Source: a virus
Strand: one strand, 5' to 3'
Virus genome (UHGV): UHGV-0135791
Length of the DNA stretch: 28,473 bases
Shown: piece by piece, positions 3,583-28,473 of the stretch
Layout of the letters: every line of letters begins with the position of its first letter
How positions within the stretch are numbered: position 1 is the stretch's first letter
Notes under the pieces: generated by a model
What the model saw: the letters and a program-made list of their open reading frames with translations, nothing else
Database searches by the model: none
What the model was told of the DNA's origin: nothing
Program-made: the position numbers and the translations under genes

Positions 3583-3732
3583 ATGAAAATCACAGATAAA
3601 GAAGCATTCGAAGACGCGCAACTGATGGCACGCATCGCCGTTAGCAACCTTGGCGGAAGCATTCCTGCGGATTCGTTCTGGGCGGCAGCGATGAAGGCAC
3701 TGAAAGAAGCTTATGCAGGAGAGAAGAAATGA
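3583..3732 (+). CDS. small hypothetical protein, 49 aa
   Basis: AAGGAG upstream of ATG 3583; below track cutoff. Confidence 0.4.
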
Positions 3733-3887
3733 GCGAACAAGGCCCGGTAAGCCAGCCATTACGAGTAGGCCGTAAAGTCAGCCACACCCCGTTCCCGCCA
3801 CGCGAGGAACTGTTGAAACGTAACAGTTTCCCCGGGCCGGACAGGAACAAGTATCTCAATCGCATGTGGGGAGAGCGTAAAGAATGA
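3729..3887 (+). CDS. small hypothetical protein, 52 aa
   Basis: ATGA overlap with upstream gene; AGGAGAG RBS; below track cutoff. Confidence 0.4.
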   Translation: MSEQGPVSQPLRVGRKVSHTPFPPREELLKRNSFPGPDRNKYLNRMWGERKE

Positions 3888-4108
3888 CTGACCGCGACTA
3901 CGAAAAGATGATGGTAGAGGCCGTTAACGGCGGCGTAGACATTAGCCACGTTATGCACGTCCTGAATACTAAAATAGCGGTAGCCGAGCAAATGGTTGAG
4001 TCGCTTTACGAGACACGCCGTGAACTGATTAACCGCTTCAACCTGAACAAGGGTGGCACCAATGCCATCGACGCCGGCAAAATCTCAGGCGTGAAGCTGG
4101 AGGATTAA
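3884..4108 (+). CDS. hypothetical protein, 74 aa
   Basis: Track ORF; ATGA overlap with upstream gene; GGAGAG RBS. Confidence 0.55.
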   Translation: MTDRDYEKMMVEAVNGGVDISHVMHVLNTKIAVAEQMVESLYETRRELINRFNLNKGGTNAIDAGKISGVKLED

Positions 4109-10311: not shown

Positions 10312-10342
10312 AAGGCCCCGTTATGGGGCCTTAGTTTTATTT
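10312..10342. terminator. bidirectional rho-independent terminator
   Basis: AAGGCCCC-GTTAT-GGGGCCTT hairpin with T-rich flanks on both strands, between convergent genes. Confidence 0.7.
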
Positions 10343-10858
10343 AAATCGCGCTGGCATTAGCACCATAAATGCAGTGTTTGAAAACGATATTTTGCATCCT
10401 CTGGTTTGGTCCTGGAAATCGAAACGAGCAATTTCATTTTTGTACGCCTTAGAAATCTTGTGCGCGTCTGCCAAGTAGGGCATGGCGAATCCTATGCTAT
10501 CAACTGCCCCCGGCGTGATGTGCGCCACACGTCGCCAGTCAGGAAATTTTCCGTCTACAACATCCACCGGAAGTGTACATATAAGCGCACAACTATCATC
10601 ATAGAAAGAAACACTGCTGATGTCATGGTCTACTTCCGCGTAGTTAAATTTAGAAGGCTCTCTCCCTTTTATGTCTATGAGAACCCCATTCTCAACGTTT
10701 GTCTTAACGTTGTCGCAGAACAATCTACGACCGTCCGTAGACACTATCAATCCTTCCGGGTCTATGTAAAAAGCATTAAAATAATAGCGCACATCATTTT
10801 TAGCTCTGCATATTTTTGCCCCTATATACGCAGGGAAAGTAATTACTGTAGTAACCAT
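10337..10858 (-). CDS. truncated DnaN (beta sliding clamp) homolog, domain II-like, 173 aa
   Basis: Segments [38 protein letters not shown] and C-terminal [11 protein letters not shown] parallel E. coli DnaN [45 protein letters not shown] and AAYVVMPMRL (from memory). Own promoter, GAGGAGGAG RBS, terminator; AT-rich relative to flanks. Confidence 0.55.
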   Translation of the reverse strand: [173 protein letters not shown]

Positions 10859-16474: not shown

Positions 16475-16887
16475 TGGGCTACTTTGAGGACTTAACCAAA
16501 GCGTTCGATGTGCCGCTGGTAGCCTTCGGAACCACCAACGGCATCAAGGTTGCGCTTGAAAATACTGACGCGCCGACGTCAACCGATACACCGTATCTGG
16601 CAAGTTACATGTTGCTTGCGGATACCGAGCAGGCTGACTTATTCTTCACCGAGCAACGCTCTGGTATCTATCAGGTAGACATTAACTACGCATCGGTGAA
16701 AGGTAGCGCACCAATCAATAAAATGGCAGACTTACTTAACACGGCGTTTAAAGCAGGTAAGTCATTTTCACGTAACGACATCTGCGCCGAGGTTCAATCG
16801 GTTAGCCTGGGGCCGCTGATTGTAGAAAACGGATGGGCCAAACGACCATTGTCAATTAACTTTATTGCATTCACCAAGAGGCTGTGA
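16471..16887 (+). CDS. tail terminator/completion protein (putative), 138 aa
   Basis: Position directly before the major tail protein gene; coupled start. Confidence 0.6.
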   Translation: MMGYFEDLTKAFDVPLVAFGTTNGIKVALENTDAPTSTDTPYLASYMLLADTEQADLFFTEQRSGIYQVDINYASVKGSAPINKMADLLNTAFKAGKSFSRNDICAEVQSVSLGPLIVENGWAKRPLSINFIAFTKRL

Positions 16888-18056
16888 ATATGGCTACAAC
16901 TCCTTTTAAGGGCGCGACTACCGCGCAATTCTATGTGGCGGAAACTACCCCCGGCGTAACCCCGGACAACCCGGTCTGGTCGCCGTTGCGCAACACCGGC
17001 GGTGTTCCCGCCATTACTCGCGACACGCTGACCTCCAACGAACTGGACGGCAGCCGTGAAACTACGTCCATCCGCACCGGTAACAAACAGGTTAGCGGTG
17101 AATATGCTATCGAGCTTAGCTCTAAAAGTCAGGATGACTGGCTGGCGGGTGCTTTAGGCTCTACGTGGCAGTCCGGTGCATCGCTGTCCGGGCTGTCGAT
17201 TACCGTCGCACCGGCGGGCAAGACGTTCACCCGCGCCGAAGGTAGCTTTATTTCTGATGGCGTTGAAGTAGGCGACCTGATTGCGTTCACCGACTTAACG
17301 GGCGATAACGCTAAACCGTTTATCGTCACTGCGGTAACGGCTACGGTTGTTACCGGCGCGGGTATCCAACACCCCCTGACCGTCGAGACAAAAACCAGTA
17401 AGGCCAAAACCGGCGACAAACTGGAAACCGGTAGCCAGTGTAAGACGTTCTCTATTCTCACCTGGTACAAAGGCCAGTGCGGCGGGACTGATGCGTACAC
17501 GTTAACCAAAGGCGTGGAAGTTTCTGGTTTTACCGTTGAGCAGGCCGTTAACGCGATGGTAACGGGCAGCTTCCCGTTCATCGGGCGCAGCCAGGAGATT
17601 CTCACCACGGCGCCGTCTGGTTCTGACTTCTCCTCGGTTACGTTTGGTGATGAGCCGTTCTCCTCGGTTGACGTTTCTGTGTTCGACGGCTCTACTCCGT
17701 TGCGTTGCGATAGCCTGACCATCACCAATGATAACAGCGCGTCTGCACAGTTCGAACTTGGTAACACTAACGTAGCATTTGTGGAACGTAGCCGTGCAGC
17801 TAACACCTTCTCCATCTCGGGTAAGCTGTATGACATGGCTATGATTCAGAAGTTTATCAACGAGCAGCAGGTAGAGATTAACTCTATTCTGGCGGGGGTA
17901 AACGGCGCTATGTCTTTCAGTTTGAAACGCGCGGAACTCACGGCGGTTACACCAGAGATTGGCGGACCTGAGTCAATCACTCAGTCCATTGAAGGCCAGG
18001 CTACGGGTAACCAGTACCAGTCGTCTATTGTTATCCAGCGCATCACCTACGCATAA
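16884..18056 (+). CDS. major tail protein (putative), 390 aa
   Basis: Large Thr/Ser/Gly-rich protein after the tail completion genes, followed by a strong terminator. Confidence 0.7.
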   Translation: MNMATTPFKGATTAQFYVAETTPGVTPDNPVWSPLRNTGGVPAITRDTLTSNELDGSRETTSIRTGNKQVSGEYAIELSSKSQDDWLAGALGSTWQSGASLSGLSITVAPAGKTFTRAEGSFISDGVEVGDLIAFTDLTGDNAKPFIVTAVTATVVTGAGIQHPLTVETKTSKAKTGDKLETGSQCKTFSILTWYKGQCGGTDAYTLTKGVEVSGFTVEQAVNAMVTGSFPFIGRSQEILTTAPSGSDFSSVTFGDEPFSSVDVSVFDGSTPLRCDSLTITNDNSASAQFELGNTNVAFVERSRAANTFSISGKLYDMAMIQKFINEQQVEINSILAGVNGAMSFSLKRAELTAVTPEIGGPESITQSIEGQATGNQYQSSIVIQRITYA

Positions 18057-18060
18057 AACT

Positions 18061-18085
18061 AAGGCCCCTTTCGGGGCCTTTTCTT
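18061..18085. terminator. bidirectional rho-independent terminator
   Basis: AAGGCCCC-TTTC-GGGGCCTT hairpin followed by TTCTT; lies between convergent genes. Confidence 0.7.
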
Positions 18086-18314
18086 ACTCATCAATATTAC
18101 TCCTGTACTCCCGTAACTTCTCCAGGCTTTCGATTGCTTCTGCCAAGTCGGTTCCCGTGTCTTTGTGCCCGCGAAGGCCCATACACAATAGCTTCTTCAA
18201 CGCGTGCTGTAGCGCAGGGTCGCGTATATCGAAGGCGCGGAGAACATCGTAAACGTCTACTGTCATAGTGCTGCCGTGAATGTTTGTCATTGTGCGGTTG
18301 TATTTTGAAGTCAT
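18084..18314 (-). CDS. DUF3310-like small phage protein, 76 aa
   Basis: Motif PALQHALKKLLCMGLRGHKD...DLAEAIESLEKL matches the A.KYL.R.G.K...DL.KA..YL pattern recalled for DUF3310. Confidence 0.5.
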   Translation of the reverse strand: MTSKYNRTMTNIHGSTMTVDVYDVLRAFDIRDPALQHALKKLLCMGLRGHKDTGTDLAEAIESLEKLREYRSNIDE

Positions 18315-19441
18315 CCCAGCATCTCCGGTGAAATAGTTAAACGTGCGACCTCGCCGTATTCAGCGCTATAAGTAATTACGTTTGCACTACGGCCTGACAT
18401 CCATCCGCCGCGCGAGGCGTAGGCGTCTTTAGCCGCTAAGGTGCGGTGTTGCTCAACAACCATGTTACGGCTTTCTACAATCTTCTGGTGGTGCAGGTGA
18501 CCCACGTGGGCATAACTGTAGACACTCTCGCCGAACGCTTTACGGAACTTGGCAATCATTACTGGCTCAATAGCGTCGAATCGTGCTTTATGCCCGTGAT
18601 GGAAGAACAGTGTCGTTTTGCCGTGTTGCACCATCTTGTAAACATCCGGTGACGTATCGACAATCACTCGGCTGTCGTTTGAGTATAAAGTCGTGAACAT
18701 TTCCGCCAGCCATACAGACCCTACAGGGTCGTGGTTCCCCTGCACGATAAGCAAGCGAACGGTTTTATGTTTAACCAGCGCCATATCTACAACACGGCGG
18801 ACCATACGAATCATGTAGCGTACAAGTTTCTGATAGCGCGTGTCAGCGTCCAACACATGACGTGACTCAGGTGTAACCGCGTCCAGACTATCGAAGTGTG
18901 CGAAGTCGCCCAGCAGGTTAATAACTCCTGTCCCGGCATCCGGTGCTTTCTGGAATGCCGCATCGAACCAGCGGGAGAACAGGTCTTCCGCAATCTTCAT
19001 GTCCCAGTCGTCGCCGCTCTCGTCGGCCCATGCCAGCATACCGAGATGGAAATCGGATACCGTGTAAAGATTGAGTAGCTTGTCGTCGCGTTTAGCGCGA
19101 ACGGCTTTAACAGGTGCAACGGGTGTAATCTCTGACCTCATGCCTTCGATTACGGCTTTCATCAACTCTATCTGACGTTCGGCGTCAGTATCGGTCTTAA
19201 CCCATTGCAACTTAGTGTTGCCGAACTCGTCCACAAGTGACGACGTGCCTTTAATTTTGTAGCCGTCCGGGACAAGGTGGCTAACGTCGCGCCCGTGGCC
19301 TACGCCTTTCTTAGCCAGCTTCGCTTTACGGATGCGAATAACGCGGTCTGAGATGCCATATTTACGGGCTATATCGATAGTTTTAACTCCGGCGTTCAAT
19401 TCTTCCTGTAACTGTTCGTCGGTTATTTTCTTCCCGGCCAT
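18311..19441 (-). CDS. N-terminal HTH domain fused to a calcineurin/Mre11-like metallophosphoesterase, 376 aa
   Basis: HTH-like LNAGVKTIDIARKYGISDRVIRIRK; phosphoesterase motifs VSDFHLG, LLGDFAHFD, QGNHD, FHHGH and HVGHLHH in canonical order. Confidence 0.75.
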   Translation of the reverse strand: MAGKKITDEQLQEELNAGVKTIDIARKYGISDRVIRIRKAKLAKKGVGHGRDVSHLVPDGYKIKGTSSLVDEFGNTKLQWVKTDTDAERQIELMKAVIEGMRSEITPVAPVKAVRAKRDDKLLNLYTVSDFHLGMLAWADESGDDWDMKIAEDLFSRWFDAAFQKAPDAGTGVINLLGDFAHFDSLDAVTPESRHVLDADTRYQKLVRYMIRMVRRVVDMALVKHKTVRLLIVQGNHDPVGSVWLAEMFTTLYSNDSRVIVDTSPDVYKMVQHGKTTLFFHHGHKARFDAIEPVMIAKFRKAFGESVYSYAHVGHLHHQKIVESRNMVVEQHRTLAAKDAYASRGGWMSGRSANVITYSAEYGEVARLTISPEMLG

Positions 19442-19479
19442 GCTTACCTCCTCGTGTTTAGGATTTGTCCTATACTAGC

Positions 19480-19671
19480 TCACTTCTCTTTGACATTCGA
19501 GTTGCACGCCCAGATTAAGATAAATACCCACGGCAGCAGAATCCAACCAAGAAACAGATTGGCCATGAATATCGCCAGCTTTGCTTTATGGTTGCGGAAA
19601 TAGGCAACTAAAAAAGGCGTAAAGTACGCGAGCAGTGCAAACAGGATTAAGGAAACTGGTAAACTGGACAT
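19480..19671 (-). CDS. superinfection immunity (Imm-like) membrane protein, 63 aa
   Basis: Two TMDs with pattern FLVAYFRNHKAKLAIFMANLFLGWILLPWVFILIWA, resembling the Imm_superinfect family (from memory); first gene after the leftward promoter. Confidence 0.55.
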   Translation of the reverse strand: MSSLPVSLILFALLAYFTPFLVAYFRNHKAKLAIFMANLFLGWILLPWVFILIWACNSNVKEK

Positions 19672-19702: not shown

Positions 19703-19731
19703 ATAGTACCCTATTATATTGGGGTGCGCAA
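19703..19731 (-). promoter_or_regulatory. leftward sigma70-like promoter, TTGCGC-N17-TACTAT
   Basis: Minus strand reads TTGCGC accccaatataataggg TACTAT tca; shares the AATAGGGTACTATTCA block. Confidence 0.5.
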
Positions 19732-19838
19732 GTAATGTGATAGAATAATTTTGCGCCTAGTGTCGCACACGAAAAGCGGGTGGTTCCCGCCTGGCGCAAC
19801 ACCATCAACCAGTAACCTCTTAACCAAAGGATTAAAGA

Positions 19839-22895: not shown

Positions 22896-22902
22896 TAACA
22901 GA

Positions 22903-22926
22903 AAGGCCCGAAAGGGCCTTATTTCT
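22903..22926. terminator. bidirectional rho-independent terminator
   Basis: AAGGCCC-GAAA-GGGCCTT hairpin followed by ATTTCT; lies between convergent genes. Confidence 0.65.
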
Positions 22927-22938
22927 CCCGCCTCTGGG

Positions 22939-23589
22939 CTAACGACCCTCTTTTATCAAGGCGATAACGCGGTCGAACATACCTTCCCTTATCGCCTCTA
23001 TCTCACATCTTCTTGATTCCGCCGCCCTTATCTTTTCAGCAATGTAAGCATCTAGCGCTTCTTCCTGAGTTTCAAAACGTCCTAGATTAATAGTTTTTTT
23101 ATCACAGCTCACTGAGGCTTTAAATTTACCTCTAGATTCTTCATAAAAAACACCTGTAGGTGTTCCACTATTTTTCTTCTCCTTTAGGAAAACATTCAAC
23201 CATTTCGGGATGAAAATGCAAGTGGTAGGGCTGTATACCTTATTAATACCAGAGAATATGTCCTTATCTAGCTCCCATCCCTCCACATAATTACAAAGCC
23301 ACCATCTACGGAAGGACATAAACCTTTGCCACCCTGGCCACACAGTTACATCCCGGTACGCAGGCCTTTTGTTTTTATACTCGGTGTCCACGCAACGTTG
23401 GATCATCCCTCGCCATGTAGCGTACGCCAGACACGTCTCACGGCTGCCGTTTATCTTGGGGCTAACCACATAATCGGCGTCATTTATGCCAAAACCACAT
23501 ATAGTTGCACGCTTAGTTTTGCTGCTTTTGTTCGCAGGATAATTCGCACGCAGCCACATGCTCTTGGCTACTTTTTCGGTTGGCATCAT
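22939..23589 (-). CDS. HNH homing endonuclease with C-terminal AP2-like DNA-binding domain
   Basis: N-terminal pattern ATWRGMIQRC...AYRDVTVWPGWQRFMSFRRWW...ELDKDI; C-terminal GVFYEESRGKFKASVSCDKKTINLGRFETQEEALDAYIAEKIR is AP2-like. RBS AGGAGA before the ATGATG start; AT-rich. Confidence 0.65.
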   Translation of the reverse strand: MMPTEKVAKSMWLRANYPANKSSKTKRATICGFGINDADYVVSPKINGSRETCLAYATWRGMIQRCVDTEYKNKRPAYRDVTVWPGWQRFMSFRRWWLCNYVEGWELDKDIFSGINKVYSPTTCIFIPKWLNVFLKEKKNSGTPTGVFYEESRGKFKASVSCDKKTINLGRFETQEEALDAYIAEKIRAAESRRCEIEAIREGMFDRVIALIKEGR

Positions 23590-23624
23590 GTTAGTATCTC
23601 CTAAACTAATAGGAGTATCTTGCC

Positions 23625-24125
23625 ATGTCTTCTTTGAAATTTCCAGCAAGTTTAAAGCCAGTGGTGTCAAAAGGCTACTCGATGACCAGACGCAACAACG
23701 TCTGGAGTGTAGATTTAGCTGGCGGCGGTGTACGTCAGGGGCGCGACACGTATTACGACGTGTTCCCGATAAGCGTAACCCTGATTACCTCAGCGCTAGG
23801 GCGTCAGGCGTTTCTGTCGTTCCTCGAAAAAGTCGATGGCGGTGCGTCAAGTTTCTGGATGGCGCACGACTTCGGCATGGGTATCGAGGATTATCAGGTA
23901 ACGATCACGTCCACCATCGCGGAGTCTACCGAAGATGGAATTAACTGGACGATTACTTTCACGGCAACCGCTGAGAAATCGCCGTTCCAGAACCTTGAGA
24001 ACCAGTGCCTGATTAACAATCTGCCGGATTTGTATGGTTGCTATGGCGACGGGCTGGGATGTTTCCTTAAAGCCTACGGAACCGCACAATCAACGTTTCC
24101 ACGAATTTGGGACCCGATGCAATGA
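23625..24125 (+). CDS. minor/distal tail protein (putative), 166 aa
   Basis: First gene after the TMP/HNH region; AGGAG 9 nt upstream. Confidence 0.6.
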   Translation: MSSLKFPASLKPVVSKGYSMTRRNNVWSVDLAGGGVRQGRDTYYDVFPISVTLITSALGRQAFLSFLEKVDGGASSFWMAHDFGMGIEDYQVTITSTIAESTEDGINWTITFTATAEKSPFQNLENQCLINNLPDLYGCYGDGLGCFLKAYGTAQSTFPRIWDPMQ

Positions 24126-27557: not shown

Positions 27558-28473
27558 ATGTCAAGCGGATGCGGTGACGTTTTAAGCCTGGCGGATTTAC
27601 AGACCGCCAAGAAACACCAGATTTTCGAAGCTGAAGTCATCACTGGCAAATCCGGCGGGGTTGCTGGTGGTGCAGATATTGATTACGCTACTAATCCGGT
27701 AACTGGGCAGATGCAGAAAACGCTTCCAGCCGTGTTGCGCGATGCTGGTTTTTCTCCTGTATCGTGGGACTTTTCCACCGGCGGTACGTTAACAGTTAAT
27801 GACCGCGACAAAGTTGTTTACGACCCGGTAAGCCTGACTTGGTACTCATATGCAGGTACGTTGCCGGTTACGGTTCCCGCGAGTTTTAACCCCGTCGGTA
27901 ACGCAAACTGGAAGCCGCAGACGGACCCAAATTTGCGTAATGATTTGGCGTCAAGTACCGCCGGTTTAGGGGCTTCACTGGTGTCTTTTTCCAACGGTAA
28001 CACCGTTGGAACATTATCTGACGCGGACGGTGCCAAGAACATAGGCAGCGGCGAAAGGAGTTTGCTTGCACGTAACAATGATGTTAAGCATTCTGGCGAC
28101 TTTTCTACCCTGCAAGCCGCGGTGGATGCGTCGCTACCGAAAAATGACTTACTTATTTCCCCTGGCGAATATACTGAAAAAGTTACTATTGGTAACGCAC
28201 AGTTAAAAGGCGTTGGTGGGGCTGTAGTACTAAAAACACCAACAGGCTTTACAAACACTGTCCAGGTTAATTCATCTACACCCCATTGGCAATTCCGCCA
28301 TAGTTGTGGTTTTGCTATAGATGGTTCTGGAACAACCGGGAGCGTAGGTATTAGTTTTGACCCGTCAGACCAATATTCTGGCCGACATAATTTTAGTGAT
28401 TTATACATCCACAACATCAACAAGGCCATTCAGAAGCCTTCCGGGAACATCGGTAATACATGGAGAAATATTG
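27558..28473 (+). CDS. tailspike/tail fiber, 5' partial (runs off window end)
   Basis: RBS AAAGAGGA then ATG 27558; open to the window end (305 codons); from about residue 180 the sequence looks like the start of a pectate-lyase-type beta-helix. Confidence 0.7.
   Translation, partial: MSSGCGDVLSLADLQTAKKHQIFEAEVITGKSGGVAGGADIDYATNPVTGQMQKTLPAVLRDAGFSPVSWDFSTGGTLTVNDRDKVVYDPVSLTWYSYAGTLPVTVPASFNPVGNANWKPQTDPNLRNDLASSTAGLGASLVSFSNGNTVGTLSDADGAKNIGSGERSLLARNNDVKHSGDFSTLQAAVDASLPKNDLLISPGEYTEKVTIGNAQLKGVGGAVVLKTPTGFTNTVQVNSSTPHWQFRHSCGFAIDGSGTTGSVGISFDPSDQYSGRHNFSDLYIHNINKAIQKPSGNIGNTWRNI

Follow-up and report, generated by a model that had tools for sequence, protein, structure and literature searches.

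The leftward gene at 18311-19441 of the virus genome UHGV-0135791 raises the question of what a phage enzyme that joins a helix-turn-helix (HTH) to a calcineurin/Mre11-like metallophosphoesterase (MPE) might do, and of whether such a fusion is as unusual as it was first taken to be. The window, by which we mean the whole stretch of DNA analyzed, is 28,473 nucleotides long. The preliminary description had placed an open reading frame (ORF) at 18311-19441, and it is present, but on the minus strand: the plus-strand reading of this interval contains many stops, and the minus strand holds one ORF of 376 codons plus stop. This coding sequence, which belongs to the PHROG 704 / T1 ST16 family, begins with an ATG 5 nt downstream of a Shine-Dalgarno sequence (GAGGAGG, 19447-19453, minus strand), its stop codon overlaps the start of the next ORF (ATGA), and it has the same GC content as the window (0.516). 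Each peptide quoted in the preliminary description is found once, and in the order given there, in the 376-aa protein.

At the DNA level the region shares ~91% identity with Escherichia phage SonjaBuckley (Bas74) as well as with other Kagunavirus genomes, and the window is a Kagunavirus (Guernseyvirinae, K1G-like siphoviruses). The phosphoesterase gene is the middle member of a leftward three-gene cassette whose insertion separates the tail tube gene (16884-18056, Pfam Phage_tube_2) from the tail assembly chaperone genes (from 19839 on). Upstream of the cassette lies a sigma-70-like promoter on the minus strand (ATCACA-17-TATAAT, 19713-19741; a consensus match only), and a bidirectional terminator-like hairpin (18061-18080) separates the tail tube gene from the end of the cassette. 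The first cassette gene (19480-19671, minus strand) encodes a 63-aa superinfection immunity (Imm) membrane protein (Pfam Imm_superinfect, E = 2e-12; PHROG 1039), and an Imm-type protein is conserved at the same position in K1G and Bas74. Downstream of the phosphoesterase gene is the translationally coupled 76-aa ORF with the ATGA overlap (18084-18314, minus strand), whose matches to PHROG 2452 (positions 150-220 of 235) and PHROG 17613 ("ATPase") are confined to the C-terminal third of these larger families; from its sequence it may represent either a free-standing C-terminal domain or a remnant. The possibility that it is a remnant of the K1G kinase-like gene was rejected, as the two do not align at all.

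The phosphoesterase gene occupies the same cassette position, in the interval between tail tube and tail assembly chaperone, in Bas74 and K1G, whereas in Drexlerviridae it lies outside the tail module, within the early/replication region and immediately upstream of the lysis cassette. Its neighbors also differ. In K1G and in Webervirus N141 it is followed by a 161-aa protein with a HAD_PNKP phosphatase domain (Pfam E = 6.7e-20) and by a P-loop dNMP-kinase-like protein, while in the window and Bas74 the 76-aa ORF takes the place of these PNK-phosphatase and dNMP-kinase-like genes. The same two neighbors recur in Drexlerviridae, most often where the SH3 gene is absent. Such an association fits a nuclease-plus-nucleotide-salvage module, and because the window and Bas74 have neither gene, the phosphoesterase works without them.

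Several other features of the window can be recorded here. An insertion of ~730 bp relative to Bas74 immediately follows the tape measure gene (window 22897-23670) and carries a hairpin, AAAGGCCCGAAAGGGCCTT, just past the tape measure stop codon and an HNH homing endonuclease ORF (22939-23670, minus strand; 243 aa, PHROG 953, E = 1.1e-65). The virion structural gene that follows the tape measure gene (23625-24125) is a short form of 166 aa (PHROG 384); its Bas74 counterpart, Bas74_0028, has 466 aa, with ~300 extra C-terminal residues. A RusA-like Holliday junction resolvase ORF (10337-10858, minus strand; 173 aa, PHROG 3007, E = 7e-36) sits on the opposite strand among the head genes, at a place where Bas74 has only a 204-bp hypothetical gene. 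Two further minus-strand ORFs, at 27818-28429 (203 aa) and 3641-3991 (116 aa), gave no PHROG match.

The domain anatomy of the protein was analyzed with an AlphaFold2 model built from 67 sequences (pLDDT 78.8, pTM 0.69); the RcPescado homolog served as the protein-search query with which diverse sequences were gathered. The predicted structure consists of three helices (residues 8-16, 21-28 and 32-44), a beta-hairpin (61-70 and 76-85), a long helix (87-102) and an alpha/beta core (119-376), and the topology of the N-terminal part was reproduced in a separate model of residues 1-116. The three helices form a tri-helical HTH fold spanning residues 1-47 (19301-19441, minus strand), within which the segment originally proposed as an HTH corresponds to residues 21-39. 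The window protein alone falls under the Pfam thresholds for an HTH (GerE, E = 0.028), but in its relatives the domain is evident: HTH_1 matches 46 of 67. When 120 representatives at 50% identity were searched against Pfam, HTH_1 was found in 24, HTH_50 in 15, HTH_8 in 13, Sigma70_r4_2 in 12 (best E = 1.5e-09), HTH_23 in 11 and GerE in 7, and almost all of the non-MPE families among the 25 most frequent were HTH families. Between the HTH and the core lies a module specific to the family, the beta-hairpin with the consensus GTS(S/T)L...QWVKT and the long helix behind it (taken as 87-104; 19130-19270, minus strand). W80 of the hairpin is invariant in the 8- and 67-member alignments, and W80 and G74 are at least 90% conserved in wider sets. 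A search for structural matches to this hairpin-helix module returned none.

These domains have diverged at very different rates. Identity to the window protein is 23-28% in the HTH, 33-36% in the hairpin-helix and 45-48% in the catalytic core, so that the HTH is the fastest-diverging domain, at about twice the rate of the core. A homolog of 317 aa from a Campylobacter phage has no HTH and retains the hairpin-helix and core (PHROG 704 positions 78-389). The HTH may bind DNA and hold the enzyme on the duplex. Around the cassette promoter we looked for repeats of operator type, inverted or direct, and found nothing meaningful. The preliminary description had proposed a sequence-targeted nuclease or phosphatase; a nucleic-acid-directed nuclease is the most plausible activity, but the "sequence-targeted" part finds no support, given the rapid divergence of the HTH, at about double the rate of the core, and the lack of operator-like repeats near the gene.

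The catalytic core (residues 119-376; 18314-19087, minus strand) has the alpha/beta/beta/alpha sandwich of the calcineurin-like superfamily and carries, in order, the motif series D-x-H, G-D, G-N-H-[DE], H and G-H-x-H that provides the binuclear metal ligands. On the minus strand, motif I (VSDFHLG, residues 128-134) lies at 19040-19060, motif II (GDFAHFD, 178-184) at 18890-18910, motif III (GNHD, 235-238) at 18728-18739, motif IV (HHGH, 281-284) at 18590-18601 and motif V (GHLHH, 314-318) at 18488-18502. Across 142 representatives D130 and H132 of motif I, G178 and D179 of motif II, N236 and H237 of motif III, H282 of motif IV and G314 and H317 of motif V are invariant, and H182, D184, T190, L197, D198, R202, D238, H315 and D339 are at least 90% conserved. 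Four of these, T190, L197, D198 and R202, are the conserved residues of a family-specific insert between motifs II and III (VTPESRHVLDADTRY, 18833-18877, minus strand), which is modeled with low pLDDT and is probably a substrate or interface loop. Conserved loops of low model confidence occur at 136-143, 185-200 and 341-346, and these are, by inference, candidate substrate or oligomer contacts. Taken with the three-helix fold, the motif positions bear out the original assignment of an N-terminal HTH followed by a five-motif calcineurin/Mre11-like MPE.

What does not hold is the view that this fusion is unusual and undescribed. The PHROG 704 profile ("DNA repair exonuclease") aligns residues 4-375 of the window protein with positions 2-389 of 390 (E = 3.8e-162), and since it covers the whole protein, the HTH belongs to the family profile. 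With tblastn we found homologs in 2,036 phage records, 1,959 of which cover at least 80% of the protein, from hosts that include Escherichia, Klebsiella, Salmonella, Vibrio, Campylobacter, Flavobacterium and Rhodobacter. An HMMER scan of 1.84 billion cluster representatives returned 4,549 clusters (at 50% identity) with E ≤ 1e-3, and 1,125 with E ≤ 1e-30; seeding a profile search with the diverse alignment A1 brought no further diversity, only the same close Kagunavirus relatives. The gene has also been reported in the persistent gene module of 508 of 522 Drexlerviridae. The exact architecture is thus a common annotated family, the very finding that the preliminary description had itself named as telling against its claim, and it is ancient in phages. 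The gene itself is near-identical to annotated genes in public Kagunavirus genomes (98.7% identity to the protein of Kagunavirus BCH953P1).

Orthologs include T1 ST16 (YP_003929), TLS gp66, K1G ORF20, Bas74_0022, Bas01_0050 and Webervirus N141 gp06. The first five have the same full-length HTH, hairpin-helix and MPE architecture as the window protein, which is 44% identical to T1 ST16 (alignment A1), to TLS gp66 (E = 3e-104) and to Bas01_0050 (E = 1e-108). Members appear in public records as "DNA repair exonuclease", "metallophosphoesterase", "calcineurin-like phosphoesterase", "DNA polymerase II small subunit" and "winged helix-turn-helix domain-containing protein". A literature search found no biochemical study of any PHROG 704 member, and the label "DNA repair exonuclease" has been carried over by annotation transfer rather than from experiment.

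To place the core within the superfamily we turned to sequence and structure comparisons. The window protein scores below the Pfam gathering thresholds (Metallophos_2, 22.1 bits against 27; Metallophos, 17.1 against 21.5), and at E ≤ 0.01 Metallophos matches 27 and Metallophos_2 17 of the 120 representatives. NCBIfam gave nothing relevant for the window protein, and PDB searches with the single sequence and with a profile gave no MPE relative and only marginal HTH matches. Foldseek recovers the generic fold at 9-15% identity, in Rv0805, YfcE-like proteins, purple acid phosphatase, PolD DP1, LpxH, Mre11 and Vps29. In the structural comparison, in which the alignment is restricted to the core, Mre11 and SbcD are marginally the best matches, with generic MPEs scoring nearly as well. 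Mre11 and SbcD are only 13-16% identical to the window protein, which adds the HTH and the hairpin-helix module, matches no SbcD/Mre11 sequence model and has no C-terminal capping domain of the Mre11/SbcD type. No Rad50/SbcC-like partner was found among the window ORFs, in the complete genomes of T1 and Bas74, in almost all of the Bas01 record, or in the examined parts of K1G and TLS. Because only the core aligns, the capping domain is absent and no Rad50/SbcC gene occurs in T1, Bas74 or almost all of Bas01, we do not file the protein as a member of Mre11/SbcD. Rv0805/CpdA, MJ0936, YfcE, LpxH and PolD DP1 share the alpha/beta sandwich and metal ligands, but they have neither the N-terminal HTH nor the family-specific inserts after motifs I and II. 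The PHROG 704 proteins form a separate, divergent, phage-specific branch of MPEs, whose core appears to resemble nuclease-type MPEs most.

A further comparison is offered by the A1 protein of phage T5. This predicted metallophosphatase is toxic, and host DNA degradation both requires it and can be brought about by it alone. T5 A1 is described as having an N-terminal DNA-binding domain and a C-terminal nuclease domain, with the escapers of retron Ec67 mapping to the DNA-binding part, and so resembles the window protein in its predicted combination of an N-terminal DNA-binding-type domain and a C-terminal metallophosphatase. An alignment of seven diverse A1 homologs has as invariant residues G303-D304-x-H306, H339-D340, S395-N396-H397, H476 and G500-H501-x-H503, which reproduce the MPE motif series. 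When the PHROG 704-type family was compared with A1 by hhalign, motifs IV-V and the C-terminal strands aligned (E = 0.0014, probability 17.5%), and a permissive domain-only comparison (mact 0.05) extended the colinear alignment to 206 columns, spanning all five motifs (E = 5e-4, probability 31%); these alignments arise in local and permissive modes only, and global mode gave none. Beyond the motifs there is local similarity in SNHDxxxSxWL, TGHTH and a C-terminal ITY strand. The differences are also clear: T5 A1 has 556 aa with an N-terminal region of ~290 residues, has HD as motif II where the window family has GD, falls in PHROG 1745 ("DNA transfer protein") and not PHROG 704, and is essential, being required also for second-step DNA transfer. 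The two families belong to the same superfamily and have analogous architectures; the sequence comparisons lend weak support to a possible closer relationship. Homologs of T5 A1 also occur far outside Demerecviridae (1,135 records), in Agrobacterium Autographiviridae, Caulobacter giant phages and Flavobacterium phages. In Vibrio phage D332 the homolog (571-2808) has a "polynucleotide kinase" next downstream, and in Aeromonas phage AhSzq-1 it is followed by the dNMP phosphatase gene dmp, neighbors that parallel those of the T1-type phosphoesterase family.

Genetic evidence on the function comes from the Bas01 ortholog. [quoted passage not shown] The same study (10.64898/2026.02.16.706125) reports lambda escapers in gam, which encodes the RecBCD inhibitor. 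The escapers and the toxicity together indicate that Bas01_0050 is not needed to form plaques, harms the cell and is the determinant of DRT7 sensitivity, and that, like T5 A1, it is both toxic on expression and an escape locus for a reverse-transcriptase-based defense. The Kagunavirus protein may behave like its Drexlerviridae ortholog. Neither a large escaper screen nor the PUA-Cal-HAD paper reports escape mutations in the PHROG 704 family, and a paper on daunorubicin contributes nothing about it.

Several functions can be weighed against these observations. The family label would imply a DNA repair or recombination exonuclease of the Mre11/SbcD kind, acting on ends or hairpins of replicating phage DNA in recombination-dependent replication or concatemer processing. 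We regard this as unlikely, given the missing capping domain, the lack of a Rad50/SbcC-like partner in the window, T1, Bas74 and almost all of Bas01, a transferred "repair" label, the viability of frameshift mutants and the toxicity of Bas01_0050 expressed alone. Moreover, dedicated exonuclease and annealing-protein pairs are already present: Bas74 and T1 each have a separate pair, which makes a recombination-exonuclease role for the phosphoesterase less necessary. (The "exonuclease" Bas74_0045 of the Kagunavirus replication module was considered as a paralogous MPE and rejected, as it belongs to PHROG 69.) A replication-accessory "proof-reading" exonuclease that resembles DP1, the small subunit of archaeal PolD, and assists whichever polymerase the phage uses is highly improbable. 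The family occurs both in phages with no polymerase (T1, TLS) and in phages with their own (Kagunavirus Bas74), only the MPE core aligns with DP1 (203-206 residues), the OB-fold and polymerase-interaction modules of DP1 are absent, and Bas01_0050 is dispensable and toxic.

The substrate might instead be a small nucleotide or an RNA end. The MPE domain of bacterial Pnkp works in 2',3'-cyclic phosphate end healing, and the phage enzyme could do likewise with PNK-type partners, or could be a cyclic (oligo)nucleotide phosphodiesterase that blunts signaling defenses. The cyclic-nucleotide phosphodiesterase Rv0805 is the top Foldseek match, YfcE/MJ0936-type diesterases score well, and the gene often adjoins those for a HAD_PNKP phosphatase and a P-loop kinase. 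Even so, we think such a role distinctly unlikely: the window retains the MPE without the PNK and kinase genes, a DNA-binding-type HTH is left unexplained, and there are no PADLOC or other family links (0 families among the PADLOC defense models at E ≤ 0.1). Loss of function, moreover, leads to defense escape and not to sensitivity, and expression is toxic. There is, in our estimate, only a very small chance that the protein is primarily a regulator, whose sigma-region-4/LuxR-like HTH would silence host or early transcription by binding RNA polymerase or a promoter and whose phosphoesterase would be secondary, for example a protein phosphatase like lambda PPase. The window protein shares the superfamily fold with lambda PPase and the PPP family, but it does not have the PPP signature motifs GDxHG, GDxVDRG and GNHE.

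The reading that we prefer, at a probability somewhat short of even, is that the phosphoesterase serves host takeover and nucleotide salvage as a DNase tethered by its HTH. In this mechanism a binuclear-metal (probably Mn2+/Mg2+) phosphodiesterase of the calcineurin/Mre11 superfamily would act as a DNase, with the fast-evolving HTH, and possibly the conserved hairpin-helix, tethering the enzyme to duplex DNA while the C-terminal core cleaves phosphodiester bonds. We infer that its substrate is DNA and its target the host chromosome. As an accessory, non-essential host-takeover enzyme, it would attack the host chromosome, or non-phage DNA generally, and its products would pass into nucleotide salvage. 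In many relatives the neighboring genes for a HAD 3'-phosphatase ("PNK") and a dNMP-kinase-like protein, both missing from the window, would share in this task. Either the activity itself or the resulting damage would make T1-type phages sensitive to DRT7.

In classical work on T1, mutants with impaired host DNA degradation showed raised transduction frequencies. According to a 2024 paper on TLS, both T1 and TLS break down the host genome and recycle its nucleotides; the paper states that the early gene products responsible had yet to be identified and lists gp66 only as a "proof-reading exonuclease". A defense that senses m6-dAMP, which is released by breakdown of the host chromosome, protects against a Tunavirinae phage, T-even phages and T5 (PUA-Cal-HAD paper). 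We put forward, as a tentative proposal that is well short of probable, that the family of T1 ST16, TLS gp66, Bas01_0050 and the window protein is the T1-type enzyme for host-chromosome degradation and nucleotide reuse. It would then provide the non-essential function lost in the classical T1 mutants with raised transduction, would be a distant relative of T5 A1, and would represent one widespread class of DNA-tethered MPE "host genome shredders" that DRT7 and retron Ec67 sense.

As a discovery the gene is ordinary, since its family is among the larger conserved ones in phages. Its remaining value is that this is a very common family with a transferred name, for which the evidence now points to a testable functional assignment. 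If that assignment is true, it would explain why Bas01 escapes DRT7 on loss of the gene and would link host takeover of the T1 type with that of the T5 type. It would also be relevant to phage therapy and the risk of transduction, because T1 mutants defective in degradation transduce more.
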